IMG/VR virus record: IMGVR_UViG_3300020442_000008
Coordinates: 32,001-96,000 of that record
DNA length: 64,000 nucleotides
From: a virus
Direction: 5' to 3' (one strand)
Positions 4,517 through 60,300 of this stretch are shown piece by piece. Numbering within the stretch: position 1 is the stretch's first letter; each line of letters starts with the position of its first letter. The notes beneath the pieces were generated by a model that was not told the origin of the DNA, ran no database searches, and saw only the letters and a program-made list of their open reading frames with translations. Position numbers and translations under genes: made by a program.

Positions 4517-4553
4517 TTTTTTAATACTAATGTGTAATATATTTGCACAGATT

Positions 4554-6824
4554 ATGAAAATATTACTACTGACCTTACTATCTTTTAGCACCTGTTTTGC
4601 AGGCGAGCTTTACTTTAATAACGGAAAAAATCTTAAAGCGGATATACTTGAAGCCAACTCGACTCATGCCTTAATAGAGAGGTGGGAAGATGGGCAACTT
4701 TTTAGAATTAAAATCAATTCATTAACAAAAGATAATCAGGCTTATATTAAAAATAATTTCCCTCCGAGCCACGAAGCTCTTCCAAAATTCAAAAAACCTC
4801 TATCAAGTGACCAATTAAACAGGCACTCGGCTTTTATAGATAGATTAATAGAAACAAAACTAAGATCATATAACCAAAGGCCAAATAAGGATATCAATGA
4901 TGAGATTTTTGTAAGAAGGGCTTACTTAAAAATAATCGGAAGAACACCTTCATTGAAAGAATTTGATAATTTTATTAACAACAGAGATTCAAATAAAAGA
5001 GCTAAATTAATTGACGAGCTATTGGGTAGTGAGGGTTATGTCAGTAATTGGTTTAACTTTTGGGCAGATATATTACGGATTAAAGACAGGCTAAATAATA
5101 GAATATCTGGAATACCTTATAAAAATTATGTTAAGCAATTCATATCAGATAACCGACCCTATGATGTTTGGGTTAGGGAAATGCTATCTTCCTCCGGACC
5201 GCTCTGGGTAGAAGGCAACGAGGGTGTTAGTTATTTTGCTAGGGATGTAAATATGCCTTTGGACAATATGGCAAATACTGTTAGAATTTTTCTAGGGACA
5301 AGCTTGGAGTGCGCTCAGTGCCACGATCACCCTTTTGATCGCTGGACTCAAAAACAGTTTTATGAAATGGCGGCTTTTACAAGCGGTTCAACCAATTTAA
5401 GATTAAAACGGGAGAGCAACTTAAATGAATTAAATAAATTAGTGAGAGAAGAAAGGAGAAAGCTGGAGCAGGCTGAAGAACCACAGAAGTCGCGTCAATT
5501 ACAAAATGCAGTAAGAGATATTGAAGACATCCTAGGTACAGGACTAACAAGTCTTGGAAATGGTAAAATTAATTTACCTAAAGATTATCAATACGATAAT
5601 GCAAAACCAAACGAATCTTTGACTGGAAAAACTATTTTCGGAAAGGAGATAGATATAAAAACATATGCTCCCGAAGCAGGCTCTAGAGAAACATACGCTA
5701 ATTGGCTTGCCTCGGACTCAAACCCTAGGTTTACTGCCGTGATTGTCAATAGGCTTTGGAAGGAAGTTTTTGGCTTGGCGCTGATTGAGCCATTGGATAA
5801 TATGTTTGATGACACATTAGCCACAGACCCTACTTTACAACTGCATTTAGAAAAGGTAATGGTTGCATTGGATTATGACTTGAAAGAATTCTTAAGAGTC
5901 TTATATAACACAAAAACTTTTCAAAGAGAAGCTGTCGCAAGGGATGTCATACCAAAAGATAATAAAGACACGCAAATGCCTGTAGATGTACAATGGATAA
6001 TAGCTGGACCAAATATCGAAAAACAATCCCAAAATGCAGTACCTTACTTTTATCAAGGGCCAATGCTCGAAAGAATGAGCGGGGAACAGATTTGGGACTC
6101 TCTTGTGAATTTAACATTCAGTAATATTGACTCTCGCAAATTAGAACAAAACACAAAAGGTTATGAAAATTTTAGAAATTTTTCAGAAATGAGCGGGGAA
6201 GATTTATTTAATCAAGTTATGGCAAAGATTAATAAAACAGAAAAACCAAATAATCCAAATAAGACAAAGTTTTCTAAACCGATTAATACAGATTGCCCCA
6301 TAAAGCCAGGGAGAGCGATTGACCCAACCCTTCTTGCCCTCAATGAGAACGGAGAAACAGTTGCTTTTTGCTGTGAATCTTGCGTGGACAAATATAAATC
6401 CCAACAAGACGCAAAAAAACAAGAATACCGAAAGAACTTCGTAAAAGATCGTAACTCTGTAAGAGCATCAGAACTACCTTCTCCTGCTCCTATTGGACAT
6501 CTAATTCGTGAGTTCGGCGGGTCGGATAGGGAGCAGATAGAAAATTCAGATAAAAGCGCTTCAGCAACGCAGGTTTTGAATTTAATTAATGGCTTTGTGG
6601 AAACGAGATTACTCAAGAATAAAAATTTTGAAATAATAAAAGCAATAGAATCCAAGAAGACATTAAAAGATAAAGTTGAAGTAGGTTATAAATATATACT
6701 AAGCAGAGAACCAACTTCTCAAGAATTAAGAATTTTTACGGAGAATTTGAAAAACCAAAAAGATGAATATAAAGAAATAATTTGGGCGTTAATTAACACC
6801 CATGAATTTATGTTCGTTAAGTAA
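4554..6824 (+). CDS. DUF1549/DUF1553 (PSCyt2/PSD1) domain protein with CxxCH motif
   Basis: Signal peptide; FIDRLI, FVRRAYLKIIGRTP, FLGTSLECAQCHDHPFDRWTQKQFYEMAAF, NPRF-VNRLWKEVFG-EPLD, DYDLKEF, WALINTHEFMF. Confidence 0.9.
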   Translation: MKILLLTLLSFSTCFAGELYFNNGKNLKADILEANSTHALIERWEDGQLFRIKINSLTKDNQAYIKNNFPPSHEALPKFKKPLSSDQLNRHSAFIDRLIETKLRSYNQRPNKDINDEIFVRRAYLKIIGRTPSLKEFDNFINNRDSNKRAKLIDELLGSEGYVSNWFNFWADILRIKDRLNNRISGIPYKNYVKQFISDNRPYDVWVREMLSSSGPLWVEGNEGVSYFARDVNMPLDNMANTVRIFLGTSLECAQCHDHPFDRWTQKQFYEMAAFTSGSTNLRLKRESNLNELNKLVREERRKLEQAEEPQKSRQLQNAVRDIEDILGTGLTSLGNGKINLPKDYQYDNAKPNESLTGKTIFGKEIDIKTYAPEAGSRETYANWLASDSNPRFTAVIVNRLWKEVFGLALIEPLDNMFDDTLATDPTLQLHLEKVMVALDYDLKEFLRVLYNTKTFQREAVARDVIPKDNKDTQMPVDVQWIIAGPNIEKQSQNAVPYFYQGPMLERMSGEQIWDSLVNLTFSNIDSRKLEQNTKGYENFRNFSEMSGEDLFNQVMAKINKTEKPNNPNKTKFSKPINTDCPIKPGRAIDPTLLALNENGETVAFCCESCVDKYKSQQDAKKQEYRKNFVKDRNSVRASELPSPAPIGHLIREFGGSDREQIENSDKSASATQVLNLINGFVETRLLKNKNFEIIKAIESKKTLKDKVEVGYKYILSREPTSQELRIFTENLKNQKDEYKEIIWALINTHEFMFVK

Positions 6825-6883
6825 AGCGCAAGAAATACACAATATATCTTGACTTTTGCATAAAATTGTGTAATAATATTACT

Positions 6884-8176
6884 ATGAAACATAGTAGTAT
6901 AGATGAACTTGGCAGAAGAGAATTCATAGCTCATGCAGCAAAAGCCTGTTTGGGCGTAGGCTTAATGCCTATGGCAGGAAATTTTATACATGACAGCGTT
7001 CAAGCCTTAACTCCAGGGGCTAGAGTACCCACGGCTCGTCATGTTATATATTTAAATATGGCTGGAGCAATGTCTCACTTAGATACTTTTGGACCGAAAC
7101 CAGATGCTCCAGATATTCAAGGTCCGACAAAATCTATAGCAACAAGCGCAGATGGAGTGATTTTATCTGAAAATTTACCCAAAACTGCACAAATAATGCA
7201 TAATGCAGCGATCATAAAAACCATGAACACAAGCCAAGGTGCGCATGAGCAAGCGAGCTACCTTATGCATACATCTTATCTTAAAAGAGGAACTATTGTT
7301 CACCCAACTTTTGGTAGCTGGGTTTCGAAACTTTCGGGTTCTCTTAATAAAACAATTCCAGCTAATGTAAAAATTGGCGGAGGTGGGGGTGGTGCAGGCT
7401 TCCTAGAATCTAAATATGGAGCTTTACCTATTAATAACCCAAAGTCTGGATTAGCAAATAGCAAAATGGCATCCTATTTAGATCAAGAGCACTTTCAAGG
7501 GAGGATATCGATAACAGAAGCTTTAAATGAAAACTTTGCAACAGATTTCCCGCAAAAACAAATTAGAGCTTATTCTGATTTATATAAAGATGCAATTAAG
7601 TTAATGAATAGTGACGATCTGAATGCTTTTGATATTACAAAAGAATCAGAAATGACATCTAGTTTGTATGGTACAACAAATTTCGGCCAAGGTTGTCTTC
7701 TTGCAAGAAGGCTTGTGGAGAATGGTGTGAGGTATGTTGAGGTCACCAGAGGCGGTTGGGATACCCATGATAATAATTTTGAGAGGGTTGCGGCTAATTG
7801 CGCAGATATAGACCAAGCATTGAGCGGTTTATTAATTGACTTAGATCGCAGGGGGCTTTTGTCGGAAACTTTAGTGGTGTTAACTTCTGAATTTGGTAGA
7901 ACTCCAAACATTAACGGCAGAGACGGAAGAGATCATTGGCCTTACTGTTTTACGGCTTTCTTAGCTGGAGGCGGGGTAAAAGGAGGAATCACTTACGGAG
8001 AAACTGATAAGACGGGAAGGTCGCCAATTGACGGGAGACCCGTTAAGCCAGCGGATCTAAATGCTACTATTGCATATGCACTAGGGTTGTCATTAAATAG
8101 CTTTCAATATTCTCCATCAGGAAGGCCATTTACGATTGCACACAAAGGAGAACCATTAACAGAGATTTTATCATAA
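6884..8176 (+). CDS. DUF1501 family protein with Tat signal
   Basis: GRREFI Tat motif; VIYLNMAGAMSHLDTF, FGQGCLLARRLVENGVRYVEV, GGWDTH, SEFGRTP, GRDHWP, AGGGVKGG. Confidence 0.92.
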   Translation: MKHSSIDELGRREFIAHAAKACLGVGLMPMAGNFIHDSVQALTPGARVPTARHVIYLNMAGAMSHLDTFGPKPDAPDIQGPTKSIATSADGVILSENLPKTAQIMHNAAIIKTMNTSQGAHEQASYLMHTSYLKRGTIVHPTFGSWVSKLSGSLNKTIPANVKIGGGGGGAGFLESKYGALPINNPKSGLANSKMASYLDQEHFQGRISITEALNENFATDFPQKQIRAYSDLYKDAIKLMNSDDLNAFDITKESEMTSSLYGTTNFGQGCLLARRLVENGVRYVEVTRGGWDTHDNNFERVAANCADIDQALSGLLIDLDRRGLLSETLVVLTSEFGRTPNINGRDGRDHWPYCFTAFLAGGGVKGGITYGETDKTGRSPIDGRPVKPADLNATIAYALGLSLNSFQYSPSGRPFTIAHKGEPLTEILS

Positions 8177-33863: not shown

Positions 33864-33950
33864 TTGACAAATAACTAAATATATAGTATTATTAATACAT
33901 AACAATTGAGAAAGAAACTCAATCAAATAAAATATAATTGATCTTTAACA
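33864..33950 (+). promoter_or_regulatory. sigma70 promoter with boxB-like hairpin and boxA antitermination signal
   Basis: TTGACA 33864, 17 bp, TATTAT 33887; ATTGAG/CTCAAT hairpin; TGATCTTTAACA at 33939-33950. Confidence 0.65.
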
Positions 33951-33965
33951 TTTTTTTAACACTTT

Positions 33966-34172
33966 GGAAGGGCTTATAATCCTTCCTGTGGGTGACTGAA
34001 TAAGCCTGTCGTGAGCGGGCTAAAGTACGCAGACTTCCTGTGGTGGGAGTGCAGAGTCCAATCGGATGAGCAAAAGATGTAGACCTTGTCTAGTCTGTGG
34101 TTTGAAGTAGGTACACCATTGAACTGATGTTCACGCCGAAAAAATGGAGGTATTCAGTAGTCCTCCCCCACA
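33966..34172 (+). ncRNA. Structured non-coding RNA (possibly manA-motif-like)
   Basis: GC-richer ORF-free island; TGTGGG/CCCACA closing stem, several internal hairpins, ACTGAATA/TATTCAGT pseudoknot-type pairing; lies between promoter+boxA and terminator. Confidence 0.65.
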
Positions 34173-34182
34173 TCTATTTACA

Positions 34183-40354: not shown

Positions 40355-40666
40355 TTGCAATTTGATATAATTATAGTATGAGAAAAACAAAATTCATATT
40401 GACTTTATCAAACGACAAAATTCCAATCATTGCAGAAGTTTGTGCTTTAAGAGTTTTAGAGAATGATGAAAAAGTATTAGGCAAAGCTTGCGTGGAAGCA
40501 AACATTAAGTCAAAAAACTTCATAGACATAACAAGAAAAGCCAACTATAAAGAAGGAAAGTTATATGCTCATGCGGATTATGTATAAGCGAAAAACCGCC
40601 ACGCAAATAGAAGAATGACAAATAGATAAATAGCAAATAGTATATATTTACCAATAAAAAATTCCA

Positions 40667-40746
40667 TAACCTTTTCATTATCAATGACTTATGGGATTTT
40701 TTTGCTAGGCCAGGGTTTGCGTAAGTCTCCGACAATCAAGGACTTA
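40667..40746. repeat. Double-palindrome element, copy D (at the strand switch)
   Basis: Arms at 40667 (TAACCTTTTCATTATCAATGACTTA) and 40722 (TAAGTCTCCGACAATCAAGGACTTA), 55-bp offset; second arm nearly identical to copy A. Confidence 0.8.
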
Positions 40747-40748
40747 CA

Positions 40749-40916
40749 TCACGAGAAAAAAGGATGCTTGACCACTGAAGACATCGGGACACAAACCCGC
40801 CTCTGTGAGCGGTAGACCCTCGCAAGGACGAAGGTCTCGGCTCCGTCTTTGTAAGTGCCCTCGACATGGAGGATTCGCTTTTTATAGTCTACCACGACAT
40901 CATTTTTTTTAATCAT
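40749..40916 (-). CDS. Small hypothetical protein (55 aa, missing from ORF track)
   Basis: MIKKNDVVVDYKKRILHVEGTYKDGAETFVLARVYRSQRRVCVPMSSVVKHPFFS; innermost gene of the - strand block. Confidence 0.6.
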   Translation of the reverse strand: MIKKNDVVVDYKKRILHVEGTYKDGAETFVLARVYRSQRRVCVPMSSVVKHPFFS

Positions 40917-41699
40917 AATTTTATCCTATTCTATCGGCTCAACTCGCCTTTGATCAATTCTTTTATTAATGCGAACAATCCCACAACACCTAGCAATGTG
41001 ACCAATTCCATTATTTATTTGTCTGAAGGAACAAAGTCAAGCTCACGATTGTCAAGGATGTATCCTATGACTTTATTGACCTTTTCGATTGTATCGTCGA
41101 GGGTCTTTTTGGAATGTTCTGTGGCTTTCATTTCTTCAAGCACGGAACGCAAGAACTTGAGATTTCCGTTTGCGGAAGCAAGCTTCATTGCGGTATTGTC
41201 GAGGAGTTTTTCGTCTTTGAGTGTTTCGATAATCATAAGTCTATTCTAAGGATTTAAGGTTAAAAGTCAAGCTTTTTTTTTCACTCCCACTCGGAGTGAT
41301 GACCGAAGTCGATGTCCTCGACCTCTTGGAAGTCAAGGAGGGAAATCCTGTCTTGCAGGTCTCCGATTTCGTTGCGGTACGCAACGAGGTCAGCGGAGGT
41401 GAGGACGGAATCCGCGATGATTTCGCGGAGGAGAGAAATTTTGTTGAGCATTTCGGATTTTGTCATAATTTTTTGTGTTAGGTTTTCTTTATTTTATATT
41501 TACAATGTATCAGAGTTTTGCGGAAAAGTCAAGAACTTTTTTTACTTTTTTTCAATTTTGGAATTACGAATTTGCAGAGGATTTTTTCTCTTTCTGTGAG
41601 TTGGGCTTTTTCAATCTTAATCATACCTATAATGTAGCACAAAAACCCCGAAAAGTCAAGAAAAATCTTTAACTATTTTTTTGCACAATTCTCCTAGCG

Positions 41700-41779
41700 T
41701 AAGTTGTTCTTTACCAAAGACTTCCGGCATAGCCGGCAGGGGCGACCGGCGCCCTAAGTCTTTGATGGTGTGTGACTTA
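41700..41779. repeat. Double-palindrome element, copy E
   Basis: Arms at 41700 and 41755 (55 bp); core CGGCATAGCCGGCAGGGGCGACCGGCGCCC. Confidence 0.85.
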
Positions 41780-42085
41780 GAACACGAGAGATTCAAGATT
41801 CTGATTTTGAACGGCAAACCAATCGGATGGGTTAATGATGTGACCGTTTAGTACAGGCTCAAAGTTGACCTGATGAACTCCGGCATTGACTATTCCGTTC
41901 ACTCGCTCACGAGTGGTTGGAGTGTTCCAGCCAGCCAGAGACCATATCACAAACCCGCTTGCATCACGCTTGATTATAGCGTTGCCATGCAACCAAACGG
42001 TGTTGCCGTCAGTGCGAGTGTTGCCAACTGTCAAAGGTTGGCGAGATTCAAAAGCTTGTTTTATTTGTTGTGTTACTTTTCTCAT
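41777..42085 (-). CDS. Conserved phage hypothetical protein
   Basis: GNT....VWLHGNAI...LAGW.TPTTRER.N motif. Confidence 0.6.
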   Translation of the reverse strand: MRKVTQQIKQAFESRQPLTVGNTRTDGNTVWLHGNAIIKRDASGFVIWSLAGWNTPTTRERVNGIVNAGVHQVNFEPVLNGHIINPSDWFAVQNQNLESLVF

Positions 42086-42272
42086 TGTTATATATTAAGA
42101 TTTTTTTTCGGGTTTTGCAAGTAAAAAGTTCAAGAAAGTTTCTTGAGCCTTTTGGTTGTCCAGGAGTTCGTCAAGTTCAATTTGTGCATTTATTACCATC
42201 TGCTGGCTTTGAATGTGTCCTGCTTCTGCGATAGGGTTGAAAACCCTGATGAGTTCTTTGAGTTCTTTGATT

Positions 42273-42431
42273 CTATCCATGGCTTGAGAGAATTGGGGCT
42301 TGGGTTTTGACTTGTAACTGCTTTGCTTTTTTCATGGCTTTTGCGTGAGTCTTTGCGTTGTCTACGATTTTCCCAAAAAGTCGGATATCGAACCAATTTG
42401 AGAAGTTTGGGTTTTTGTCAACATTTATCAT
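42273..42431 (-). CDS. Microprotein, paralog 1 (52 aa, missing from ORF track)
   Basis: MINVDKNPNFSNWFDIRLFGKIVDNAKTHAKAMKKAK...; own leftward promoter; paralog at 45066-45239. Confidence 0.7.
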   Translation of the reverse strand: MINVDKNPNFSNWFDIRLFGKIVDNAKTHAKAMKKAKQLQVKTQAPILSSHG

Positions 42432-43042
42432 AAGCTTTTATACTATATCTTAAGGTTTAAAAAGTCAAGCTTTATCTCCAACTTTTTAGAGAAAAATTTG
42501 TCTGATGTGCCGAGACGGGCAAACCTTGCGTTGGCAAGTCTTTTGCGAAGTCATCAAAAAAGGCAACCGCTTCCGATAGCTCGTCAGCGTGGATTTGCTC
42601 CTCAAGCTTTTTCAACTCGTCCTGTGCATGGCTGAGATGCAACGCCCGAATGGAACGCAAGGATTCCTTGCGAGAGCGGTTGAGTTTGTCTTGCCAAAAG
42701 GCAATTTCCTTTTGGAGCTTTTCTATCTTTTCAATTTTATTCATGCCTACAATATATCTCAAAAAGGTTGGGAAGTCAAGCTTTTTTTACATTATTTTTC
42801 ATCGCAATCTTGTTTTGCAAATCCCATTCGTCGAGCCAAGCTTGGTTTTTTGCCAAAGCATCCTTGGCAATTTCAACCACGACAGGGTCGCTATCGTGGG
42901 CAATGGTCTCCCGAAGGAATACCATATCGGCTTTGACTTTAGAGATGAGTCTTATTGAATTAAACATACCTATAAGGTATCAGAAAAACCGACATTTGTA
43001 AAGCCTAAAATTAAACTATTTTTTTGCACGATTCTGCTGTCG

Positions 43043-43122
43043 TAAGTCATTGTTAGTTAGAGACTTCCGGCGCAGCCGGCCTGGCCGGCCAGGCCCGCAA
43101 GTCCTTGGCTAACAAAGGTTTA
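43043..43122. repeat. Double-palindrome element, copy F
   Basis: Arms at 43043 and 43098 (55 bp); core CGGCGCAGCCGGCCTGGCCGGCCAGGCCCG. Confidence 0.85.
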
Positions 43123-43570
43123 GGTCGTTTTTTCGAGGCTTTCGACCCATCTTCCGACTAGCTCTATATCGTGAAAAATGTGGTCAATCGGCTTATCTTC
43201 GCATTCGTCGTAATGCTTTGCCTCGTCGAAGTAGTAAGTGCAAACGATTTTTTGAATGGAATTGATAACAGGTTCAGGTATGTCTTGCATTTTCATTTTC
43301 ATTTTTAGTTTAACTCGTTAAAGTAGTTTTCTTCAATGATTTCTGTACCGATAAACTCACGGCATCGAGATAGGTCTTGCTCTAAGTAGTACCGAACGGC
43401 TTTGGCTACAATTTGATTATCTTCCTTGTAGGGAAGTTCGTCTTTTACTCTCGCCACTATGGCGTCAATCCACTTTGGCACGATGTCTTTTTCAATTTTC
43501 ATGAGTATGATTTTAGTAATTTTTGAGCCGATTGCAAGATTTTTTTTCGTTTTAGTTAAGTTTTTTTTGG

Positions 43571-43690
43571 TTATCTGCGGGGAGCCAAGTCCCGCCGTTT
43601 ACGGCTCTTAGTTTGGGATTTTCATTTTCATATCTGCGGGGAGCCAAGTCCCGCCGTTTACGGCTCTTAGTTGGGAATTTTCTTAATCAT
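43571..43690 (-). repeat. Tandem duplicated unit: 7-codon minigene plus structured GC-rich segment
   Basis: Two copies of TATCTGCGGGGAGCCAAGTCCCGCCGTTTACGGCTCTTAGTT, 59-bp period; - strand reads MIKKIPN* and MKMKIPN*. Confidence 0.85.
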
Positions 43691-43760
43691 ACCTATAACA
43701 TAGCACAGAAACTCAGAAAAGTCAAGAAAAATCTTTAACTATTTTTTCAGATTTGTGTCG

Positions 43761-43840
43761 TAACTCTTTGAACTGGAGCGACTTGCGACAGATTTTCGGG
43801 GGGCGACCGGCGCCCTAAGTCTTTGATTACCAAGGCTTTT
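43761..43840. repeat. Double-palindrome element, copy G
   Basis: Arms at 43761 and 43816 (55 bp); core ends GGGGGCGACCGGCGCCC. Confidence 0.85.
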
Positions 43841-45065
43841 CGTCTTCTTTCATATCTTGCCACATGAGATAGAAAACTACAAGCCAAGGAGAGAATAGGA
43901 TAATTTCGATCATAATGTTATTTTTTGCGTTGTTCGTGCAGTATGGTCTGAAGCTTTTTTCGGGCTTCTTGGACTGCGTGGAGAGCGTCGAGGATCGCGA
44001 TGCCTTGCGTGATGCTCAAGGTTTGGTCTCCTTCGGTGTTGGTTGACCCAGCAAGAAAGTTGAGATTGCCTTCTGCTTTAGAGAGAGCAAGTCCGAGATC
44101 CAACTCGGGAAAATCCATTTTGCTTGATTCGTTCATGCTACTGATTTCGTTTTGATTGTTTGGTGTTCGCTTTTTAAAGCTTTGGTGATCTTGCTCATGG
44201 CAAGGGCGTTTAAACTAATTTGTTTTAAGAATGTTTCAATCTTTATCATATTACTAATCTATAAAAGTTTTGGGCAAAAGTCAAGTTTTTTTTAAATTAT
44301 TTTTCCCATATTTGGTTGATGTAAAAAACGGCTTGATCTCCTTCTTTTGGAAACATTCCCCTTTGAAGTTGCACTTTTGTTTGCAACTTGCGAACCATAG
44401 CAAAAAACTTGCGTCTAGCTTCAGGCTTGTCTTCAGCTTCAACGGAGAGAATGTTGTTTGTCATGTGCGTATCAACAAAGGAATTTGTGTTTGTGTTCCA
44501 TAAAGGAAGCTTTTCCTTGCTATCAATGGAAGAGACATGAATGTTTGCAGTGAATGTTTTATTTTTAATCATGTATATAATTTAAAGGATTTCTTTGTAA
44601 AAGTCAAACTTTTTTTTAATTATTTTACAGCTTGTTTGATCATTTCAAAAGTCCAAACGTGACCTCCTGGGCATTCCCAAAGGTCGAAAGCCTCGGACAT
44701 CGGGCTTGCTTGGATACGCTGAAGACCATTTTCTTCAATGAATTTTTGTATTTCTTTAGTTAACATATTTTCTATTATAAGGATTTAAGGTTTAAAGTCA
44801 AGCGTTTCTTTCAACGGATCTCCAACCATAACGAGCGACTTCGTCATTATAGCGAGCTTCGGGAAGCCTTGATTTTAGGCTTTTGATATTGGCGAGAATC
44901 ATCTCGCGAGTGTGACCTGTGGCGGGCACGAAGCCTTTACCACTTTCGTAGTGATGTTTTTCGAGGCTAGACTCGAGCATTTGAATGTCGAACTTTATTG
45001 ATTCTGTTTCTGTCATTTTCATATTTACAATCTACTATATTTTTACTAAAAAGTCAAGCTTTATT

Positions 45066-45239
45066 TTACTTTTTTTTACTTATTCTTGCACCTGTGGTGA
45101 TGGTGTTTGGAAGTTCTTTTTTAAGCCTTTCAGCTATTTGCATAGCTTGGGCGTGTGTCCTTGCGTTGTCTACTAGCACATCATTAACTAGCACATTAAA
45201 CCATTCTGAGAAGTTAGCATTTCGTATTATCTTAATCAT
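45066..45239 (-). CDS. Microprotein, paralog 2 (57 aa, missing from ORF track)
   Basis: MIKIIRNANFSEWFNVLVNDVLVDNARTHAQAMQIAE... Confidence 0.7.
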   Translation of the reverse strand: MIKIIRNANFSEWFNVLVNDVLVDNARTHAQAMQIAERLKKELPNTITTGARISKKK

Positions 45240-45310
45240 ACTAACAACATAGCACTATATGGGGCAAAAGTCAAGTATTATTTTACTTTTTTTTTATTTT
45301 TTTTCTATTA

Positions 45311-45390
45311 TAACTTACTGATTATTAAAGACTTACAGCATAGCCGGCAGGGGCGGCCGGCGCCCTAAGTCATTGGCTATTAAGGGTTTA
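45311..45390. repeat. Double-palindrome element, copy H
   Basis: Arms at 45311 and 45366 (55 bp); core CAGCATAGCCGGCAGGGGCGGCCGGCGCCC, nearly identical to copy E. Confidence 0.85.
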
Positions 45391-45612
45391 GAACTCGTCC
45401 ATCAAGAACTCGTCAAGTGCATAGGTGTCTAGGTCGGGGTCTTGGTAGCTTGCACCATCAGGTGTGTTGTATGTGCCCGATTCTACTAGATGATTGGCTA
45501 GATCTTTGTATTGCACAAAACGCCTAGCGAGTTTATATAAACTCTCGTCGTTGCCTAACCATAGGGCAACATTCCATGTTGCCCAATTTGCCCAGCCGTT
45601 GTAATCGCTCAT
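45388..45612 (-). CDS. Conserved phage protein (YNGW-NW-TWNVALW family)
   Basis: MSDYNGWANWATWNVALWLGNDE...TPDG; start moved to 45612. Confidence 0.7.
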   Translation of the reverse strand: MSDYNGWANWATWNVALWLGNDESLYKLARRFVQYKDLANHLVESGTYNTPDGASYQDPDLDTYALDEFLMDEF

Positions 45613-45616
45613 GGTC

Positions 45617-45778
45617 TTATGCGTTAGGGTTGACAGCGAAAAGCCCATAACGACGCGAGCCGTCATTGTGCTTCATGCGAGAGCGTAGGAGACGCTCAGC
45701 GTCACGCCTCCGCAACGCTATGGATTCGACTTGCCAAACGGCGCCCGCTTGGTTGAGGATAGACTTAAGGATGTACAT
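45617..45778 (-). CDS. Small basic hypothetical protein (53 aa, missing from ORF track)
   Basis: MYILKSILNQAGAVWQVESIALRRRDAERLLRSRMKHNDGSRRYGLFAVNPNA; AGAAAGG upstream. Confidence 0.55.
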   Translation of the reverse strand: MYILKSILNQAGAVWQVESIALRRRDAERLLRSRMKHNDGSRRYGLFAVNPNA

Positions 45779-46142
45779 GTTAACCTTTCTGTTGAGGGTT
45801 TAGGATTCAAAAATTTCACGCATTGCACCGCTCACGCAGTCCATGTCAACGAGGTTCTCGTCGTTGTCGAAGTCGTCGTCTTCTTGTGCTTCGACTGCAT
45901 CAAGAGAAACGAATTCGTCTTCGATGTCACGCTCGGATGCGTGTTGCACTCCATGTTCAAGGGTAAACTCTTCGTTTGCGATTTGCTCCTGTATGTCAGC
46001 GAGCAAGTCAGCGAATTGACCTGTGACTTTGTTGTTGTTCGCTTCAGCGAGTTCAACGGCTTTACGGATTGCTTCGATATTATTTTCGTTATTCATAGTT
46101 ATGTATATTAAGGATTTTTTGAAGAATTGCAAGAAAAAAGTT

Positions 46143-46253
46143 TCAGCAAAAGCACTTTTTTTTGTGCTTCGCTTTGCGTGGAAGCACTTTGTTTTTAAGC
46201 TTGTGAGGTCTTGCCTTGGTGAAGACCATTGGAATTCGTACTTTTACTTTCAT
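46143..46253 (-). CDS. Very basic microprotein (36 aa, missing from ORF track)
   Basis: MKVKVRIPMVFTKARPHKLKNKVLPRKAKHKKKCFC; leftward TTGACT promoter just upstream. Confidence 0.55.
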   Translation of the reverse strand: MKVKVRIPMVFTKARPHKLKNKVLPRKAKHKKKCFC

Positions 46254-47053
46254 GATTATATTCTAAGGATTTAAGGTGTGGAGTCAAGCTTTATTATGCA
46301 ACCCACTCCACAAGCTCAAACTTGCGAGGCAAGCCAAACTTTGCAAGATCTTTGTTGAGATCTTCGACGGATGCGTGGTGTTCGCATTTCATCATGACAT
46401 TACGCTGTACGATCTCGCCGCTCTTGCGGTCAATGATGTTGACCTTGGCGATGAAACCATTTACTTGTTTATCATTTTTTATCATACCTATAACATAGCA
46501 AAAAAAACGGAAAAAAGCGAGAAAAAAAACGCTTATTTTGCACATTAAAGCTGAGCTAATGAGCTTATTATTAAGGCTAATTATACCCCCCCGGTGCCCA
46601 AACCCCCACCCTTTTGTGAAATGAAAAGGAATCTAAGCTTTCAGATTTTGGCGGGGGGTGGTGTTTTTCAATATCTGAATCGTTTCCGTTTTAATTAACA
46701 AATGGGCCGACCAAAAAAAATCCACGGGGTGTATTTCTAGGTATGGCTGATGAACAAGAAATGTATTGGTTGAAGAGTATGCAATTCCAGCTCCAACAAA
46801 AGGATCGGGAAATTGCTGATTTGCTAGTTATCATAGACACACTTCAGACTAACATGAGGAGCGTGTCTACATATGTCCCTGAGGATAAGATTAAAGAAGT
46901 TACAACCCAGAGTTATAACTGGAGCCTTAATTGGAGACCAGGGCAAGATAAGTCGTAGTGCCTTAATGTCACATTGTGACACGCACGGGGGTCGCTAAAG
47001 GGCATTTTGTCACTTTGGCGACCCTTTTTGCTTAATTTTAAGGCTCTAAAAGT

Positions 47054-47069
47054 TGGCATGAAGATTGCA
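47054..47069 (+). promoter_or_regulatory. sigma54 (-24/-12) promoter of hsp20
   Basis: TGGCAT-GAAGA-TTGCA fits TGGCAC-N5-TTGCW; ends 13 nt before ATG 47083. Confidence 0.7.
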
Positions 47070-47082
47070 ACTATATACGCAT

Positions 47083-47469
47083 ATGAAATATTCACTTATT
47101 AATCAATTGTTTGAGCAGGCGAACCTGCTTAATGCCATGGACGACAAAGTTTGTAACGTCATCGATTCTAGTTTGGACTCCTATAAATACAGGACAACCT
47201 TAAATGAGCAAGAAAATGAATACATTATTCATGCTCAAGTCCCAGGACTAAGCAAAGAAGATATAAATATTACTTTAGATAATAATATTTTAAAGATTTG
47301 CGGCGAAAAAGCTATAAATGACCATATGACATGTTCAATTAATAAAGAACTTTCGCTTGGAAGAGATATTAATGCATCAAAAATAACTGCAAAAGTAGAG
47401 AATGGAATACTAGAACTTAATATTCCTAAATCAGAAAAATGCAAAACTAAGAAGATTAAAATTAATTAA
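47083..47469 (+). CDS. Small heat shock protein (Hsp20/alpha-crystallin)
   Basis: Y-I-A-VPGLSKEDINI, L-I-GE, I-AKVENGILELNIPK, KKIKI. Confidence 0.92.
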   Translation: MKYSLINQLFEQANLLNAMDDKVCNVIDSSLDSYKYRTTLNEQENEYIIHAQVPGLSKEDINITLDNNILKICGEKAINDHMTCSINKELSLGRDINASKITAKVENGILELNIPKSEKCKTKKIKIN

Positions 47470-51391: not shown

Positions 51392-54300
51392 ATGGGAGGT
51401 AGTGGTTATCAAATTCACGGCTTACCCGGCGGTTATGCTCCCGCAATTTCCGAAAAAGGGGTTGATATATATGGTGGACCTAGAGGTTCTTTAGCGGGCA
51501 CTCTGCCGTCTTGGATTGCATGGTGGACCACTGGCTTCAGGTATCAGCCTGGGCATATTGTATATATGCCTGGCGTGTATGAGAGAGATTATAATGTGGC
51601 TGGGCAAGTTATAAACCAAGGATCTTTTTCTCCTGGACAGGCATACGACGATGGCAGAGGAAACCTGTCTTATAAAAGAGACGAGCTTGCTTGGGATCAA
51701 GATATCCAGGTACAAAGCCTTCAAGAAGGAGGAGATCTTACAGGAGGAAGCATGTCTAGGGGCGCCGGTTCAATCAAGTCTGAAGGGGCTAAGCAGTACT
51801 TTGAATATGGATCTCATACATTATGGGTTAAATTATTTGGAGGTCAGGATAATGCGGCGACAAACGACTCTTCATTAACAAAGGATGCAGATTTTTTTGA
51901 TGTAAACAAGCGGCGAAAAAACGGGTGGTATTGTTTTTACGAGCTAATGAGGGAAACAGATCCTATTGTTGGAGGAAACCTTGAAATCGCTTTTCCTGGA
52001 AATTATGATATACAAAGTAATCAGTGGGACAGTAATAAAAAAAGATATACAGTTAAAGTAAATAACCAAGAAACTTTAAAGGTTGTCTATGGTTCCTGGG
52101 GTGAAGATCTTTTTAGACAAATTCCTTGCGAACCAAATAGCGCTACAGAAATCGCAGTTTTTCACGATGAGACCATATTGAACATGTGTGATACTTTTGC
52201 TCTTCTAGCTTCAACTCTTGCAGCTAGCAAGCATTTAGTAAATTTTGTTGTATGTAAAAGTGTTCTTAGGTCACCTGGATCTTTAGGAGAAGATGAATCT
52301 GCAAGCCCTGTTGAGGTTGCAATTCTTCCGACCGATAAAATTACTATCGGAGGAAATGTTCTCAGAAGCCCTCAAAAGGTTGCCATTAGGGATACGGTTG
52401 ATAATAGTTTTGATAAGGATAGTAGTTTTTTTGAAAACGACAGCGGTTCAGATGAAGAAATAACGATGCTCTCTGCAGGTTACCCTGGAATTATGAATCC
52501 TGAGGCATTATTTCATGCCGCTCGAAACGCAGACGATTTTGATGCAAAAATAAGCGATATTGCCAAGGGTAATGTTGTAGGAAGTGACGTTATTGTGGGC
52601 GAGCAAATTCTAGCAGATTCTGAGCAATTATATTTAGATAAAATAAAATTTGGTAAAATGCCTGCTTACGATCCTAGATTTGGTGAAGCTGCAACTTCGT
52701 TAAATAGTTTTATAAGTTCTGTTTATAATTTTTCCCTACCCATGTCAACTAGTGCGAGCATTGATTTCTGGGAAGCAAATATATTATACAAAGTTGGCAA
52801 GGTTGTAAGGCTGTCTCCCAACGCAACCGAATATAATGCGGCAGAGGCGGAGAAAAACTTTAAAGATGTTGTCTGGGTTTGTAAAAAAGAGCATACATCT
52901 GGCGTTTTTGCTGGAGAAAAGTGTCCGCCTTTGGGAAGTGGTGGTTCTCGCTCTGTTCCCGAGGTTTTTGAAAACACCTATTGGAGAAGTTATGGAGTCT
53001 TGGCGAATCAACCAAATTCATCGCTTCTTCAGTTGAATGATTTATATAGAGATTCTGAAATATTTGTCCCCACAATTAATGTAACAAAAAGTGCTTCTGA
53101 AAATCTAAACCTTGGAGAAGCTGATTTTTCGCGAAGCTTACTGGGTTCTTCTAGGAGAATTAGAATGTCTGAAATGTCTGGAGGTTGCAGATTGTATGCG
53201 AGTTTAACCATTTCACCTGCCAAAAAATTTGACGTAAAATATTATCGAAAAAGAAATTCATGGGGAAGAAGAAGAACCGTATCTTTTAGATTTCCACCTC
53301 AGAGGTCCGATGCAGCTCAAGCAGACTTATGGTTGTATGCCAATAACTTCAGGAAGGATCATGCAGGATCTATAAATTTTGCAGTTACATTTGTTGAGCA
53401 TACTGGTTTTGTTTGGGCTCAGGCAAAAAGGAGAAGAGGTTCATTTTTTGGAGTTTTACTGGGAGTGGCTTTTGCGGTTGTTGGAATCCTTAATCCCGCT
53501 TTATTTCTTACTGCAGGTATGCAATGCGCTGCGTGGGGTTTTGGTGGCGGGCTTGCTTTAGGGGCTTTGGGTGGAGCGGTGGGATTAGGTATTGGTACTG
53601 CTCTAGGGGCAAGCGCTGAAGCGGTTTACGCAAACCTGGGAAAAGGGGTTGGTAGAAAAAAAGCTTTTACTAGGCAATCTTTTTCTAAAATCGTGAGTAA
53701 GGTTGCTGCTGATGCACCATCTTTGGACTATGTTCTTCAACGTGGTCAAAGCCCAGACAATGGAGTTGTTATAGGAAAAAATAGTAGTGATGTTGCGCAA
53801 GATATGTATGATAGCAGTAGTGATACTAAAAACGAAAATGATATAATTAGATTTAATTTTGGTAATCTTTATCCATATCTATATGAAAGCAAGCATAATA
53901 ATACAATTCATGTTACTGGAGAATATCAGTTTATGATCCAAGATTTGAATTCAGCGCAAACAATAAAGGTTGATTTTAAGTATGAAGAAATTAGCCGCAG
54001 AAGATCTAGGAATTTTAATGATTCCTTTGGTCAAACCTTTTCAGGTTACCCGCGAGGAACACCAGAAAGCCCGCATGCTAGTGCAAGCTCAACCCTTTAC
54101 AATGCATACGTAAGCGCAGCAAATGATATTATTAGCGGAAGCACAAGTTCTGGACAAAATCTTAAGTTAATTGCAACAAGAAATTATTTTAATTATCTAT
54201 TAATTGGCCAAGAAAATGTAAGAGACGCTAATGATCCCCTAAAAGCTTTAACGATGTGGTCTGTCGATTTGAGTAATGCTCAATTTAATGCTTTGATAGG

Positions 54301-57300
54301 TATGATGCAAACGGGTTTTAGGGATTTGGTGTTTTCTGGGGATGGCAGTTTCGCTGATCAGGATGGACTTAGTGATTATCATGAGTTTTATACAGAAAAC
54401 CCTCCTATTGCCGCTGCGGAGAATGAAGCTGCACCAGGTTACCAACTAGAAATAGAAAACAACAGTATCAAGGCTGTGATCAAGGATCCAGGTTTAGAAA
54501 CAGAGCGTAGGGTGGGAGTATTAACCAGTGTATCACAGACCCAAAGTTTGGATCGCGAAGAAGCAGAGGTGCTTGCGAAAGGTCTCGTTCCTGGGGAATT
54601 TAAATTAGGAAAAGAATTAAGTGAATCGACCCCTCAATATATAAATTTTTTAAACACTCCGTCTATTACTGATTCTATAAAGTGGGGGGATATTCAAAGC
54701 GGTATAAAGATTAATGGTGGTAGTGTTATTGAGCATGACTCTAAATTCTACTTCGTAAATTCTACTTTTATTAAGGGCAGTCAAAACTTGACTGATGTCG
54801 CAACTCTGGTTCCAGGCTCCTCGTCTAGTATATATACTGCAGACTCTTTCTCCCCAAGTTTGACACTCACTAAACAGTGGCAAAAAATGATTGAGTCCGA
54901 GTTTTACTTAGAGAGAGCAATAGATCGAAGCCCGACCTATTCTGTCGTGGGTAGAAAACTAGATTTTTCATTTATTGTTAAAGAAAGCGCGGATTCTTCA
55001 TTGATTAATTTATTCTTGTTTGGTTTTTCTGATTTTGTGCCGAGGTTCTCTATGAGTAATTTTAGAACTTATTTTGTAGATTCTGTGGCGACGATTAGTA
55101 TACAAAGGCCAATCAAAGATATCAGCGGCCAGTTGCTTGGAGAGGGTACGGCCAGTTGGTCTCAAGCAGATACAAAAGATACTCAAGACCACGTATTTAG
55201 ATTAAAAGAAGATATTCCTGACAAGGAAAATCCTAATATAGGAACCATTCCTGGCTTTAAGGATGAAACTTCTTGGGAATATATTGGAATGCCTCCTGAT
55301 TTATCGAATAATGCTTTTGATTGGTCGTTACCAGTATTAAATGAAATCAGTGAGTTTTCCGCAGGAGACGACCTGCTGACTGGATCCAGAACGCGTTCCA
55401 TAGGCTTTTTAACTTCTAATTCAGAAAGGTTTAGGCTTGTTTCTAGCGATACAATAGAAGACGTTTTGGCCAGATCTGATGCGAATTCTATTAATTTTCC
55501 ATGGATCAAAAGAGATTCACAAGAATCAGGCGGAACATATATATCTAAAACGGATCGGAATGGAGACTTGGTGCATCTTTTATGCCCATATAATTCAACT
55601 AATCAAGATCAATGGGGACCTAGTAATGTATCATCCGTATGGAAAAGCGTAATGAATTCAATAATCGGTGCATCAAATGTATCGCATTTACTAGATGCAT
55701 ACCTTACAAATGAATTAGATACTGCTCGCAGTTTTTCGGATGGCGCAGTAGATCTAACTCATATTCAATTTGTTATATCACCTGTAAGTGATATAATTTC
55801 CTCTCTTGAGGTTTGGGATGCAAGTAAGAATTACAATAATGGAGATGTCGTTGCCGTGCATCATACAAATTACCATTACGTAGATAAGTCTACAGGAAAC
55901 ATTAACTCACGAAGTAGTCAGTTTGGCAAGCTTTGGATGTTTGCAAAAGCAAGAAAAAATATAGTTGCAAATACAAACATTCCTTTGTTTGATGATAATG
56001 GAGATCCTGGAGCTGCTTTAGGAAAATCCACTTCAGAGCTTGCGACCATGGTTTTACCAATAGAAACAAAATACTGGGAATGTGCAACAGCGAGAGAGGG
56101 TACTGGTAAGGAGGCAGTGACTAGCGCTATTGGCTCTAAGAAGTTATCTAAATCTTACTACGGAACAGATTTGGATGTTAAAAGTTACGGCATCTCAATG
56201 GGTTCTCCAGACACTTACCAACAGAAGGACAGGGCGACGAAGACCACAGTCGCATACGTTCCTCAGCAAAGAATGATTTACAACAATAACGTAAACACCG
56301 ACTTTCAAAACGTTAATAATTTAATCTTTACCACAACTATATCTGAAGACGCCAAAATCGTAGGTAGACTTCCTGCGGAATCTATATTATATACAAACCA
56401 GGGAGGAACTTGGCCTGGTACAGTTGGGGATAAAGCTTCCACTTACTTATCTAGAGTTGATTGGGCGAACTTATATCCCGAGAATCAATTGATAAGCTTA
56501 TTTCTTCAAAGAACTGTAAATGCCGGAGCCAAATGGACAACCTGGCTAGACGCGTATGGTGAGTTGGCTTATGGAGAGCAAAATAAAGCCAAAGCATACG
56601 AGACGGTTACTTTTTCTCAAGGAGATGAATTTAATCAATTTCAAACGATTCCAAATGTAACACTTGGCGTTTCTAAAGACGACGGTACAACATTTTCTTC
56701 GTATGAAGCTTTTAGAAATTTTGACCCAAATTACCCCGTATTTCACAAGGGTTATACCGTACCTATTGGAATCAAAGCTTCAGTTACTAACACGGCAGGA
56801 TTGATCGTGAAGCCTTCGTCCACCGATGGCTCAAACCTTTATGGCTACGCCTCTTGTTTGGCTGGTCCTGGTGAAAGCATAGTAGGTGGGCAATACGGCA
56901 AAATTACATATGTTCACGAAGGTTCTGGCAGTGAAAATGTAAAAATTATGGATTCTTCAGGTAGTGTTATAAACAATGTGGAAATATCTGAAAGATTTCG
57001 ATCACTAGTGGCTGGAGATAAAAGCGGGGTAATAGGATATGGTCCAGAATGCTTAACTACTGAGTTCAATATTCATAGTATTTCTGGGATTGATATGGCC
57101 AATTTTACTTCAGCTTTGTCGGTTAAATTACCTGAAAAATGCGCAACTCGTGAAATTGCAGATTTATGTACGCAGAAGTGCGTACTGGTACTTGGAATAA
57201 GAGATGGAAACGATGGAACTACTCTAAATAGAACTAGATTTAAAAATTTTTATACTGGAAGTGGTATAAATTTTGAATTTGATAATTGGTTCGCAAGAAG

Positions 57301-60300
57301 AGATTCTAGTGGAAATTACAAGGATTCATTTGGAGAGTCCTGGCCAGATTCTATGAGGACACATGGCGAAGACGATGAAATCATAAAGGTTGTTTCCAAG
57401 CTGAATACAGTTTCAGAAGCGGTAACTGGACTTATTGATGTTTGTGGGGCAGGGGAAGCGGATTCTCATAAAGATAAAACGATAAAGTTGTCTGATACGG
57501 AAACTCATTATCATGGATTTGAGCAAGAGTTCTTGCCTTATGATGATATAGGCTTGGCGTATATAACTGAAATATTGAAGGGTGCTGGGCAATTTATCGG
57601 ATCGCAAGTCGGCGCAGGTTTTAATGCAAGTGGCACTTATATAGGTGGTTCAGGATTAACCCAGACAACCATGGCTACTGCAGAGTTTATGGCGATATCT
57701 CAGCCAGCATTTGAGGATGGGTTGATGCACGGAAAACCTCCTGGCTCGGATAAAATTTATTTTTATTCAAATTCAAATTATGATTTTAAACTTGATGTAT
57801 CAATTCCATCTCTTTTGTATAAAAAATATGTTAATAATGATGATCCTTCAGATGTGATTAATAAAAACTATTACGATACATTGTTTGATAGTAATTCTCC
57901 AGGAGGAGGAGATGCAAAAAATGATTTTTATGAAGAATACGTATTCTTGCCTGAATTTAAAATTTATTTAAATAATAATTTACAAAACACCTATAATCAG
58001 TCTAGTTCTGAATTTAGTGAAATAAATGGATATATAGGAAGATTTACTTTAAATAAAGCGAAATTAGGAAATCCTTCTAATAATAGTATTATTAAATTTA
58101 CTATTGATGACGGAATAACCTGTCCACATGGGGCTAATTTCAAAGAATTGAGTTTAACCGCCAAAGTTGTTCAGCCTCCGTCTTTTAGTGCAATGGAGAA
58201 TAATATCAATGGAAAGTTATATTATTATACAAACGATGATCATCTTTATTCTTTTGGCGTGGCTTTTCCGAATAGTAGCACCTTTGGTGGAAGAGTCGTT
58301 ATTAATGACGGCGTCTCAGGGGATCAATTTTTCGAATCATCCAGTGGAGCTCCGAATGTAGATTTCACTGGGCCTGGTGCTGGCTCAACGCAAGTAACTA
58401 TTACTGTAGATGATGGAATACCTTTTGGGTTCGGCAAGGCCAGAACGGGTGCAGCGGGACATAATTTAATTTACCCCTCTAATTTTGATCCTGTTCAGAT
58501 TTTTCCTGTTGCAAAAATTCCTGTTGGTGATATCTTTTTAACTTTGAGTACGACCGGAGATGGTTTTATAGCAAACAAGACAATCGGTACACCTCCAGAC
58601 ATAGAAGTTGTGGATATTATGAAGCAATATATTTATAATAAATATGACCACGAATACTCTGGACTCATTGCAAACATTCCCGCCTTTGCGGTTGATGATG
58701 TCACTGATCGAACGCATTTCGTGTCGAGCTCTTCAATTACAGGTGAAGCAGCGGGGTCTTCTACCCAATTAGCGCTCTATTTTAATCCGTTTTTCTTTTT
58801 TTCCGCGGGTCAGGGCCTAGTTACGTTAAAGGAAGATATGTTTCCAGAGGAGGAAGAGGGAATTCAGAATTTTACAATTCAAGACGGAACATTTTTAAGT
58901 TCACCCAAGTCTTCGGCGGTAGTGCAAATTCCGTATGTTAGAATAAATAGACCTCACGCAACGATTACTGGAATTGATTTTAGTGAAACTTTTAAACTTT
59001 GGAATGATTCACCATTGGTTGCATCTGGAGAATTCGAAATTGAAGGGCTTATTAGTTGCTCTGAATTTGCTAACATAAAGATCACAACTGATAGGGGCGA
59101 ATACAATCTTTCTGACGAAGATGGTTTGGAAAATCCTCCTGATGGTGGCTTTACAAATTTTAGGTGGAATTTTACTGATTACAATTTAGATTCTAGTATT
59201 AATGGCGAGGCGGATCTTATTGATGGATTGTATGTAACAATTTTAGATCGAAACCGAGGGACTAACGAAGGTACAGACACTTGGGAAACATATAATTATA
59301 CCACCTCAGAAACAATCGACTTGTTTCTTGATAGTAATGAATATAAAAGTAATTATGCAAGTGGAGACATCGTTACCACTGATCCGTTAAAGAGAATTAG
59401 GTTTAGCAAGAGCATTAGCGGAATTCCTCTTACCGTTCGAATACAGGACAATGTTTTGAAAGATAATGGAATCATTGAAACCAAGGATATCGAGCTACCT
59501 GGGCAGATGAGTGTTGCAAATATACCAATTTATAGCAAGCTTAAAAGTTTATTTAAGTATGAAGATCAGAGTGATAGCTTGATTAAAAATAGAATGGGTG
59601 GTCAGTTTAATATAGTTGACAAGGATTGGAATCCTGGATTTGCTTCGCTTGAAGACTTTCAAGTCCGAAGGTATTCTGCTGCAAATAGTGCTTTGCTTTA
59701 TTCTTCTTATACTGTATTAAGCTCTCTTCGAATTAATTATCATCATAGTGCAAATGTATCACGGACAAAAAATATTTTTGAAACCGGAAATAGGACAAGC
59801 TATGATGCACACGACGCTAGGATAGCTTATGATTCCGCAAGGCATGGTAATAATGAACCCAACGTATGGGCAGAGAATTCAGGCACCGAAGACTGGAGTC
59901 AATATTGCACCACTGCAATGTCAAATGGAGCGATCGATTTGTGTCCGAATGCTATGGGCGATTTAATTTGGTCAGATGATGCAAAATGGCTAAGGCATGA
60001 AGATGTCGACCCATCTTCCCCAACGTCGCCAGATGAAAGGGCTTATGACGATTTTGTAATTTGGCACCCTAAAGACCACAAGGGAGAAGATAACTGGGAA
60101 ATTGTTGGTAGGTCAGATAAAGATGATAATGATGAATCTTCCATGAGACTTCCTGATTGGGTGGGAGATGACGACGGTCTTGTTTCGTCAGATCAAGACT
60201 GGTTTTCTACAACAAGACTCATGGGGTGGCGTGTAACTTGCCCTCATTTGAGTTTTATAGGGAATTTGGCAAACTGCGCGCAGGATACAGAAAAGCGTTA

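Follow-up and report, generated by a model that had tools for sequence, protein, structure and literature searches.

We describe a two-unit array of a conserved module, present in a clade of marine phages, on the minus strand of a 64,000-nucleotide (nt) stretch of viral DNA (positions 32,001 to 96,000 of the IMG/VR virus record IMGVR_UViG_3300020442_000008). This whole stretch is referred to here as the window, and all coordinates are those of the window at its full length. The parent record, at about 129 kb (128,598 nt), is of marine origin and is estimated to be 95% complete. Each unit of the array consists of a 7-codon open reading frame (ORF), the TAA stop codon of which abuts a GC-rich structure of approximately 35 nt with two crossing helices, S1 of 5 base pairs (bp) and S2 of 3-5 bp. 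The array is the 5′-most element of an early transcript; it is leaderless here, whereas a purine-rich leader of 20-29 nt precedes it in other phages. Judged from its sequence and from that of its relatives, the module looks like an undescribed device that would engage host ribosomes early in infection.

The two-unit array in the window

The array is preceded by an early promoter of the sigma-70 type at 43697..43725, which consists of TTGACT, a 17-nt spacer and a TG-extended TATGTT (9 of 12 matches). The first minigene (43667..43690), formed by ATG, six codons and TAA, encodes MIKKIPN and is leaderless, its ATG lying 6 nt past the -10 element; a second in-frame stop follows the first one after two codons. 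The TAA abuts pseudoknot 1 (43632..43666), a 35-nt GC-rich segment that runs through S1a (43666-43662), L1 (43661-43655), S2a (43654-43650), L2 (43649-43646), S1b (43645-43641) and S2b (43640-43636) to the tail AGAT (43635-43632). Minigene 2 (43608..43631), again composed of ATG, six codons and TAA, encodes MKMKIPN and has neither a promoter of its own nor a Shine-Dalgarno motif, and pseudoknot 2 (43573..43607) behind it is identical to pseudoknot 1. An A-rich spacer and then a promoter-like site (TTGCAA-16-TAAAAT, 43537..43510) occupy the adjoining segment of the same strand (43510..43572).

A sequence-only reading of the window had described a leftward promoter followed by tandem minigenes and identical RNA segments on the minus strand, and this arrangement is borne out, with the correction that the stretch identical between the two units is 41 nt long and includes AACTAA. 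The synonymous differences that it reported in the Ile and Pro codons (ATT/ATC and CCC/CCA) are likewise present, as are the complementarities GAGCC/GGCTC and GCGGG/CCCGC, which cross each other. A repeat search of the window returned the units as two direct copies of 59 nt with 88% identity. The 35-nt GC-rich segment occurs twice with 0 mismatches, which was seen in 0 of 100 shuffles, and no further copy was found elsewhere in the 128,598-nt virus record when up to 3 mismatches were allowed. All five mismatches between the units fall inside the first 18 nt of the unit, a placement that would have a probability of about 0.003, that is, (18/59)^5, if mismatches were distributed at random. A near-twin of the array promoter, at 41659, serves an ordinary small gene and has the same A-rich stretch upstream.

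Conservation of the frame and of the crossing helices

A covariance model (R1) built from 57 units matched 85 units at 40.8-73.8 bits in 34 marine loci, the next best match scoring 16.6 bits; the second unit of the window (window:43570-43631) scored 65.8 bits. These 85 units reduce to 60 distinct ones and form 36 arrays, 28 of them distinct, of 1-5 units each, and pattern scans located units in 29 contigs from marine metagenomes and in four viral ones. The sequence-only reading had suggested that the structure fitted the plus strand better. We found instead that the early-gene strand carries every one of the 85 units, together with the promoters, the ATG and the stop, and that one S1 U.G pair (row L095:6337-6394) is possible on that strand alone.

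Searches beyond this set gave no further member of the family. A strict minigene pattern had 0 matches among 185,579 prokaryote species, each represented by one genome, and a relaxed pattern gave at least 120 matches in cellular genome contigs together with 19 new loci in viral contigs, 0 of these at least 139 sites having the knot behind it. No match was obtained by blastn of window positions 42800-44600 against isolated phages, nor was the exact 35-mer found in the collection of viral contigs; 40 of the 43 stretches retrieved with a pattern for the knot core were chance matches in GC-rich contigs. The comparison with Rfam that had been proposed returned no family: Rfam 15 had no match on the units at the gathering threshold, nor in the window region at E values up to 10, and no family fell on the units in seven further array loci at E values up to 1. 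Two weak matches were dismissed, one to SAM-II at 43503-43554 (18.2 bits against a threshold of 44 bits) and the other to alpha_tmRNA (18.5 bits) beside the array of locus L088, which did not recur and was accompanied by no tmRNA according to ARAGORN.

The exact frame of ATG, six codons and TAA is found in 57 of the 60 distinct units; of the other three, one has lost its stop and two retain an ATG in frame, 18 nt ahead of the knot. TAA is used in 59 of the 60 units and TAG or TGA in none, while 59 of the 94 long ORFs of the phage end in TAA, and the distance from TAA to S1 is 0 nt in all units parsed. The columns of highest entropy are the third positions in codons 5-7. These three wobble positions (ATT/ATC, CCC/CCA and AAC/AAT) vary independently of one another, 6 of the 8 possible combinations being seen, which makes a 1-nt register slip, an explanation raised earlier, unlikely. 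The 36 distinct frames include 34 pairs with a single-base difference; it is synonymous in 21 of them, where a fraction of 0.178 would be expected (p = 1.5e-8, with pairs that are not independent), and a minimum spanning tree of the frames has 21 synonymous and 31 non-synonymous codon changes (p = 1e-4). Eighteen peptides are encoded, mainly of the type Met-x-x-Lys-Ile-Pro-Asn, with MIMKIPN, MKMKIPN and MIKKIPN dominant; Asn is the C-terminal residue in 32 of the 36 distinct frames. Divergent peptides (MLLKVSN, MLLKLSN, MLLKRPN, MFNQIYN, MLKQIYI, MQTKMDN, MKMKMDN and MKTKTPN) have the same length and keep ATG and TAA. A gene for a repetitive protein is ruled out by the unit period of 58-63 nt, which is not a multiple of 3, and a CRISPR-like mini-array was rejected, as its 'spacers' would be conserved better than its 'repeats'.

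The structured part of the unit begins with S1a (5 nt), L1 (4-8 nt), S2a (3-5 nt) and L2 (3-4 nt, mostly A..U) and continues with S1b (5 nt), 0-1 nt, S2b (3-5 nt) and a tail ending in GAU or GAC. There are seven versions of S1, each with its exact complement (GAGCC, GCGCC, GCACC, GCACT, GGGCT, CGCCC and CGCTC), and about ten versions of S2. Because the CGCCC and CGCTC classes are one column out of register in the R1 model and in MAFFT alignments, pairs were counted both on a subset of five classes (36 units) and on the alignment of a second model, R2, which recovers 58 units and is fitted to S1, not to S2. In the five-class subset, S1 is paired in 100% of cases with double-sided changes at three of its five pairs, and the structure as a whole is 90.5% paired, compared with 79.2% in shuffled alignments (0 of 500 reaching the observed value) and at most 54.7% with slid partners. 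In the R2 alignment (50 distinct units), S1 is again 100% paired, now with double-sided changes at all five pairs, and pairing over the whole structure is 90.5%, compared with 68.1 +/- 1.3% after shuffling (0 of 500) and at most 51.4% with slid partners; both sides have changed in 8 of the 10 pairs. By these alignments both crossing helices, S1 and S2, covary, and the predicted structure is of the pseudoknot type, as the sequence-only reading had thought possible. Taken alone, the helices have median energies of -6.9 kcal/mol (S1) and -4.2 kcal/mol (S2), and -6.7 and -8.9 kcal/mol, respectively, in the window. Nested minimum free energy folding of the units on the minus strand gave values no better than those of shuffles (z = 0.06 and -0.28), which is uninformative because the method is blind to pseudoknots. 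The loops are poorly conserved in sequence and length, and fair constancy is confined to the two end positions of L2; this favours a structural role over ligand binding.

Could the array be no more than a recent, functionless duplication of the 5′ end of a gene together with a GC-rich stem? The two knots of the window are identical, and the minigene starts, ATGATTAAG and ATGAAAATG, are of a generic type, many genes of the surrounding early region beginning with one or the other. Such neutrality is contradicted by the 28 distinct arrays, by the compensatory changes in both helices and by the preserved frame, and we regard it as very improbable. Inspection of homologues in viral metagenomes had been suggested as a check, and these homologues keep the 7-codon frame and covary. 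The earlier proposal that the peptide frame and the RNA are both under selection is supported by the conservation of the frame, by the synonymous excess and by the covariation of both helices.

Transcription, ribosomes and competing explanations

A recognisable promoter is found within 70 nt of the array in 20 of the 28 distinct arrays. The ATG lies 6 nt past the -10 element, and is therefore leaderless, in 8 of these 20, the window included, and 20-29 nt past it, behind a purine-rich leader, in the other 12; the remaining arrays begin at contig edges or with weaker hexamers. What follows the array could be judged for 25 arrays, which were scored by inspection: a GC-rich palindromic segment with a new promoter behind it in 12, an A-rich stretch and a new promoter in 4 (the window among them), and a gene directly, with no promoter or hairpin between, in 9, the gene differing among phages. 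Because 16 of the 25 arrays thus have their own palindrome and/or a fresh promoter, the array is usually a short transcription unit of its own and not the leader of one particular gene. Three marine metatranscriptome runs contained 5-6% of the sampled words of the region; short contigs from runs X1 and X3 cover units, and X2 covers the upstream gene. These contigs are weakly compatible with transcription, since DNA carry-over is possible and ends, strand and level are not readable from contigs.

We considered that the array might act in cis, as a translation-coupled attenuator or stabiliser of one or more downstream early genes that senses, for example, ribosome availability or charged tRNA. 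Its position at the 5′ end of the transcript and the nine arrays that run directly into a gene are in keeping with such a role. No site resembling a terminator was called between the array of the window and the early gene that follows it (43305..43502, minus strand), and this gene encodes a 65-amino-acid (aa) protein with no family match. This gene has its own promoter-like site, so that regulation by the array is not necessary. A homologue of it lies downstream of a one-unit array in locus L092, and as bait in viral contigs the gene gave 15 pattern matches, 0 of which were confirmed as relatives. The palindromes and fresh promoters behind 16 of the 25 arrays and the variety of the downstream genes led us to reject a leader-peptide attenuator; S2, moreover, is not followed by the U-tract of a terminator, and we hold a cis-acting leader of any kind to be quite improbable.

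What, then, might such an RNA do? The known kind to which it would belong is the translated minigene coupled to a downstream RNA structure, and the tandem pseudoknot module would be a variant of this kind. We found no description of such a module, and no mention of the three main peptides, in the literature searched, coverage of which was incomplete and without supplementary tables; within that literature, the tandem heterogeneous arrays, the stop-abutting pseudoknot and the stand-alone early phage transcription units appear to be without precedent. Among the closest known systems is mccA, the heptapeptide gene of microcin C. According to PMC6495379, MccA precursors are for the most part heptapeptides that begin with Met, end in Asn and show no other conservation, the 7-codon mccA message supports about 71 rounds of translation per ribosome binding and longer versions fewer, and retranslation without ribosome release is possible for ORFs of 2-8 codons. 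PMC4231749 adds that the ribosome on mccA governs the downstream hairpin and makes the RNA very stable. The arrays share with mccA, where the ORF has 7 or in rare cases 8 codons, the 7-codon ORF with N-terminal Met, mostly C-terminal Asn and variable residues between, in the proportions given above, as well as the strong promoter, the structured RNA right behind the ORF and a length within the retranslation range. On the strength of the heptapeptide pattern, of retranslation and of hairpin control, we rank first the reading that the array forms a ribosome-loaded early RNA of translated minigenes and pseudoknot bumpers with formyl-heptapeptides as its output; we propose it tentatively, as a serious possibility that falls somewhat short of probable.

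Under this heptapeptide-array reading, every minigene would be translated. The AU-rich 24-nt frame between GC-rich knots would be the sole unstructured site for initiation in a genome that barely relies on Shine-Dalgarno motifs: GGAG precedes 6 and AGGA 8 of its 94 long ORFs, a rarity that implies a host with putatively Shine-Dalgarno-independent initiation. The mRNA entry channel of the ribosome holds about 11 nt downstream of the P-site codon. Since S1 starts at the first base past TAA, a ribosome would unwind S1 while codons 5-7 are in its P and A sites, and it would terminate with its front against the S2 hairpin. The knot would then serve as bumper and insulator at once, holding the ribosome on the short frame, where ORFs of 2-8 codons can be retranslated without release, shielding the RNA and separating neighbouring units. 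The product would be a stable early RNA from which N-formyl heptapeptides, most of them with a C-terminal Asn, are made in large quantity, and the logic would be that of the mccA heptapeptide gene with its ribosome-controlled hairpin, minus the MccB enzyme.

There are differences from mccA. The structure of mccA is an intrinsic terminator, whereas the knot here has no U-tract, and mccA has a strong Shine-Dalgarno sequence before its ORF, whereas the array ORFs have none of this type, either at the first ORFs, which are leaderless or preceded by the purine-rich leader, or at the internal ones. The units here are tandem and belong to early phage genes, and four of the 36 frames do not end in Asn. 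Above all, the arrays occur without MccB/ThiF in this genome and in four other array-bearing viral records, and by the searches made membership of the microcin C system fails on the defining enzyme.

Several of these and other points weigh against the heptapeptide-array reading. First, ThiF/MccB (PF00899) had 0 matches in the 128.6-kb genome and in the four further viral records with arrays (fragments estimated to be 8-76% complete), while the control matched in 14 of 14 genomes; a pathway leading to a modified peptide would thus be without a phage enzyme, and an MccB-like enzyme encoded by the host is possible. Second, translation, the peptides and the RNA ends are putative, and none of the three can be read from the metatranscriptome contigs. 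Third, the four exceptional frames end in Thr or Ile, and the synonymous excess could reflect constraint on the tRNAs in the ribosome and not on a free peptide. Fourth, S2 is paired in 79.7% of cells in fixed register, a value lowered by a 1-nt bulge in some classes, and the connections of 0-1 nt from S1b to S2b and of 3-4 nt from S2a to S1b are not classical H-type loops; S1 and S2 may alternate instead of coexisting. Finally, arrays combine distinct pseudoknot classes in a recurring order, often with the CGCCC class last, which hints that the identity of the RNA matters beyond that of a mere bumper.

If the peptide were irrelevant, the act of translation might itself be the output, and the array a trap for ribosomes, tRNAs or release factors that serves host shut-off or translational reprogramming. 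The knot would in that case stall ribosomes carrying chains of 5-7 residues and so lead to their sequestration, to peptidyl-tRNA drop-off (Ile, Pro and Asn) or to release-factor occupation, at an early stage of infection and driven by a strong promoter. A model for such toxicity is bar of phage lambda, a very short ORF on a phage early transcript that is toxic through tRNA sequestration; bar minigenes are two codons long, and toxicity of this type proceeds by peptidyl-tRNA drop-off and is worse when Pth is limiting. The arrays resemble bar in having very short ORFs on phage early transcripts, and they differ in that bar is not known to occur in conserved repeat arrays or to have a conserved downstream pseudoknot. 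A knot that begins at the first base past TAA, so that its unwinding coincides with the decoding of the conserved codons 5-7, would suit a trap, as would the presence of up to five units behind strong early promoters and the use of TAA as the sole stop; toxic minigenes work by tRNA sequestration according to PMC2490762. The phage would starve its own translation too, however, and no Pth or RF-1-domain protein that might offset this was found in its genome, the tRNAs of which are specific for Thr, Leu and Arg and none for Ile, Pro or Asn. In addition, frames of quite different codons (MLLKVSN and MFNQIYN) are tolerated. We consider a trap of this kind unlikely, though it deserves to be kept in mind.

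The RNA might instead be the effector. The pseudoknot array would then titrate a host or phage protein, for example a type III toxin, as a decoy against abortive infection that resembles pseudo-ToxI, and the minigenes would merely recruit ribosomes that guard the AU-rich linkers from RNases and Rho. Phage pseudo-ToxI mimics of type III antitoxins exist, and the layout of a promoter followed by tandem pseudoknot repeats of 58-63 nt, with a palindrome after 12 of the 25 arrays, is that of the antitoxin arrays ToxI, CptI and TenpI, in which tandem small pseudoknots with single-stranded tails follow a promoter, often with a palindrome. Distinct knot classes are, furthermore, conserved across phages and stand side by side in one array, as if each had a separate partner. 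As described in PMC3401426, type III antitoxins consist of tandem pseudoknot repeats, with units of about 60 nt in some, and have no translatable ORF, whereas the linker here is a conserved translatable ORF under codon-level selection and each array mixes sequence classes. Loops as poorly conserved as these (L1 of 4-8 nt) would also be unusual for a specific protein-binding RNA. Type III systems have a terminator palindrome and then a ToxN, CptN or TenpN toxin gene downstream; the ToxN family (PF13958) had no match in the genome, although its control also matched nowhere, and PADLOC returned 0 matches for 10 neighbouring proteins. A mimic standing alone could in any case do without a toxin gene. 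Owing to the missing ORF in the known antitoxins and the mixed knot classes here, an antitoxin mimic fits worst of the four candidate functions that the sequence-only reading had proposed, the others being a ribosome or release-factor trap, a minigene like lambda bar and a peptide that inhibits defence, and an RNA effector in general seems to us improbable.

Two further kinds of pseudoknot were compared. STAXI, a pseudoknot found in two to three tandem repeats on mobile DNA (PMC2864571), shares with the arrays its tandem pseudoknots on mobile DNA and sits near DNA-handling genes. It has no associated minigene, and the Rfam families, among them STAXI, riboswitches, ribozymes and tmRNA, gave no match to the units at the thresholds stated above. 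Signals for -1 frameshifting or readthrough likewise have a pseudoknot that follows the decoding site by a few nt, whereas here the spacer past the stop is 0 nt, a slippery heptamer occurs in some units only and not as a conserved site 5-9 nt upstream, and units with a period of 58-63 nt show no conserved extended frame; this candidate was rejected.

Returning to the ribosome-loaded heptapeptide array, we speculate, as a bolder proposal and one that is more doubtful than the reading itself, that the arrays represent a new class of phage translation-hijack, in which tandem 7-codon minigenes with pseudoknot bumpers, on a leaderless early RNA, would cycle host ribosomes on the spot. The output might be a formyl-heptapeptide effector of the type Met-x-x-Lys-Ile-Pro-Asn that floods the cell, or else the capture of ribosomes, tRNA-Asn or release factors within minutes of the onset of infection, and units with different knot classes in one array might differ in kinetics or in their partners.

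The early region and the phage genome

The array lies in a leftward early-type region at 40.4-47.4 kb (40400-47400), where twelve near-identical promoters (TTGACT-N17-TAnnnT) with A-tracts upstream are found on the minus strand. At most of these promoters, an ATG is found 6-7 nt downstream, which indicates that the early mRNAs are leaderless. The gene upstream of the array encodes a 72-aa protein with 28 relatives in IMG/VR, among which L026 alone has an array, of three units, in the same place; in the closest relative, L003, a promoter and a small gene occupy the place of the array. This comparison suggests that the early region is a mosaic of promoter-gene cassettes and that the array is one such cassette. 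Small paralogous early genes, for example at 45239..45066 and 42431..42273, share the motif NFSxWF..DNA+THA. Boxes of the form CAA(A/G)GACTTA(C/G) recur around GC-rich palindromic segments, both between early cassettes and behind arrays; they were seen at 43740-43830 of the window (minus strand), at L003:3310-3385 and L026:3830-3900, and downstream of the arrays in L040, L056 and L098. These boxes may represent a phage-specific terminator or processing module that has no U-tract.

Clustering of the neighbouring genes revealed no protein family common to all array loci, and PHROGs matches for the 10 neighbouring proteins were confined to two families of unknown function. Proteins of 103-146 aa (L093:67-507 and relatives) form a family that is found in 17 array loci, at up to about 1 kb from the array, and in 0 array-less loci, two sets that were sampled differently; the family is absent from the window region and could be a neighbour specific to one lineage or the product of an artefactual frame. 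At 46143-46253 (minus strand), the window contains a leaderless ORF of 36 aa that is extremely basic (Lys/Arg-rich) and has no Pfam match. Its family is present in 19 of 34 array-bearing loci versus 5 of 27 array-less loci, again in sets that were sampled differently.

The genome as a whole carries three tRNAs (Thr, Leu and Arg), a manA RNA, and sugar-nucleotide and DNA-repair genes. The manA RNA motif lies at 33966-34176 (plus strand, 84.4 bits) behind a strong promoter at 33864, and genes for GDP-mannose dehydratase and epimerase are located at 1852-3832. At 4530-8176 (plus strand), a protein with the domains DUF1549 (PSCyt2) and DUF1553 (PSD1) is encoded beside a DUF1501 protein. Such a gene pair is typical of Planctomycetes and Verrucomicrobia, and is therefore unusual in a phage; it may be a clue to the host. 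A single ORF of 3847 aa extends over 51392-62935 (plus strand), its Pfam signal being a weak match to DUF4214 alone.

If the heptapeptide-array reading holds, one of the smallest genes possible would have become a repeated ribosome-engaging module, in which minigenes, heptapeptides of the mccA type and stop-proximal pseudoknots are joined, and the 'dark matter' among early genes of marine phages would gain a family of RNA and peptide. The arrays should provide a natural system, at about 60 nt per unit, for the study of a terminating ribosome that meets a structure right past the stop, and of reiterative translation as well. Whatever its function, the module is a motif that covariation supports and that Rfam does not contain, and it is a marker of one marine phage clade whose early genes are leaderless and poor in Shine-Dalgarno motifs.

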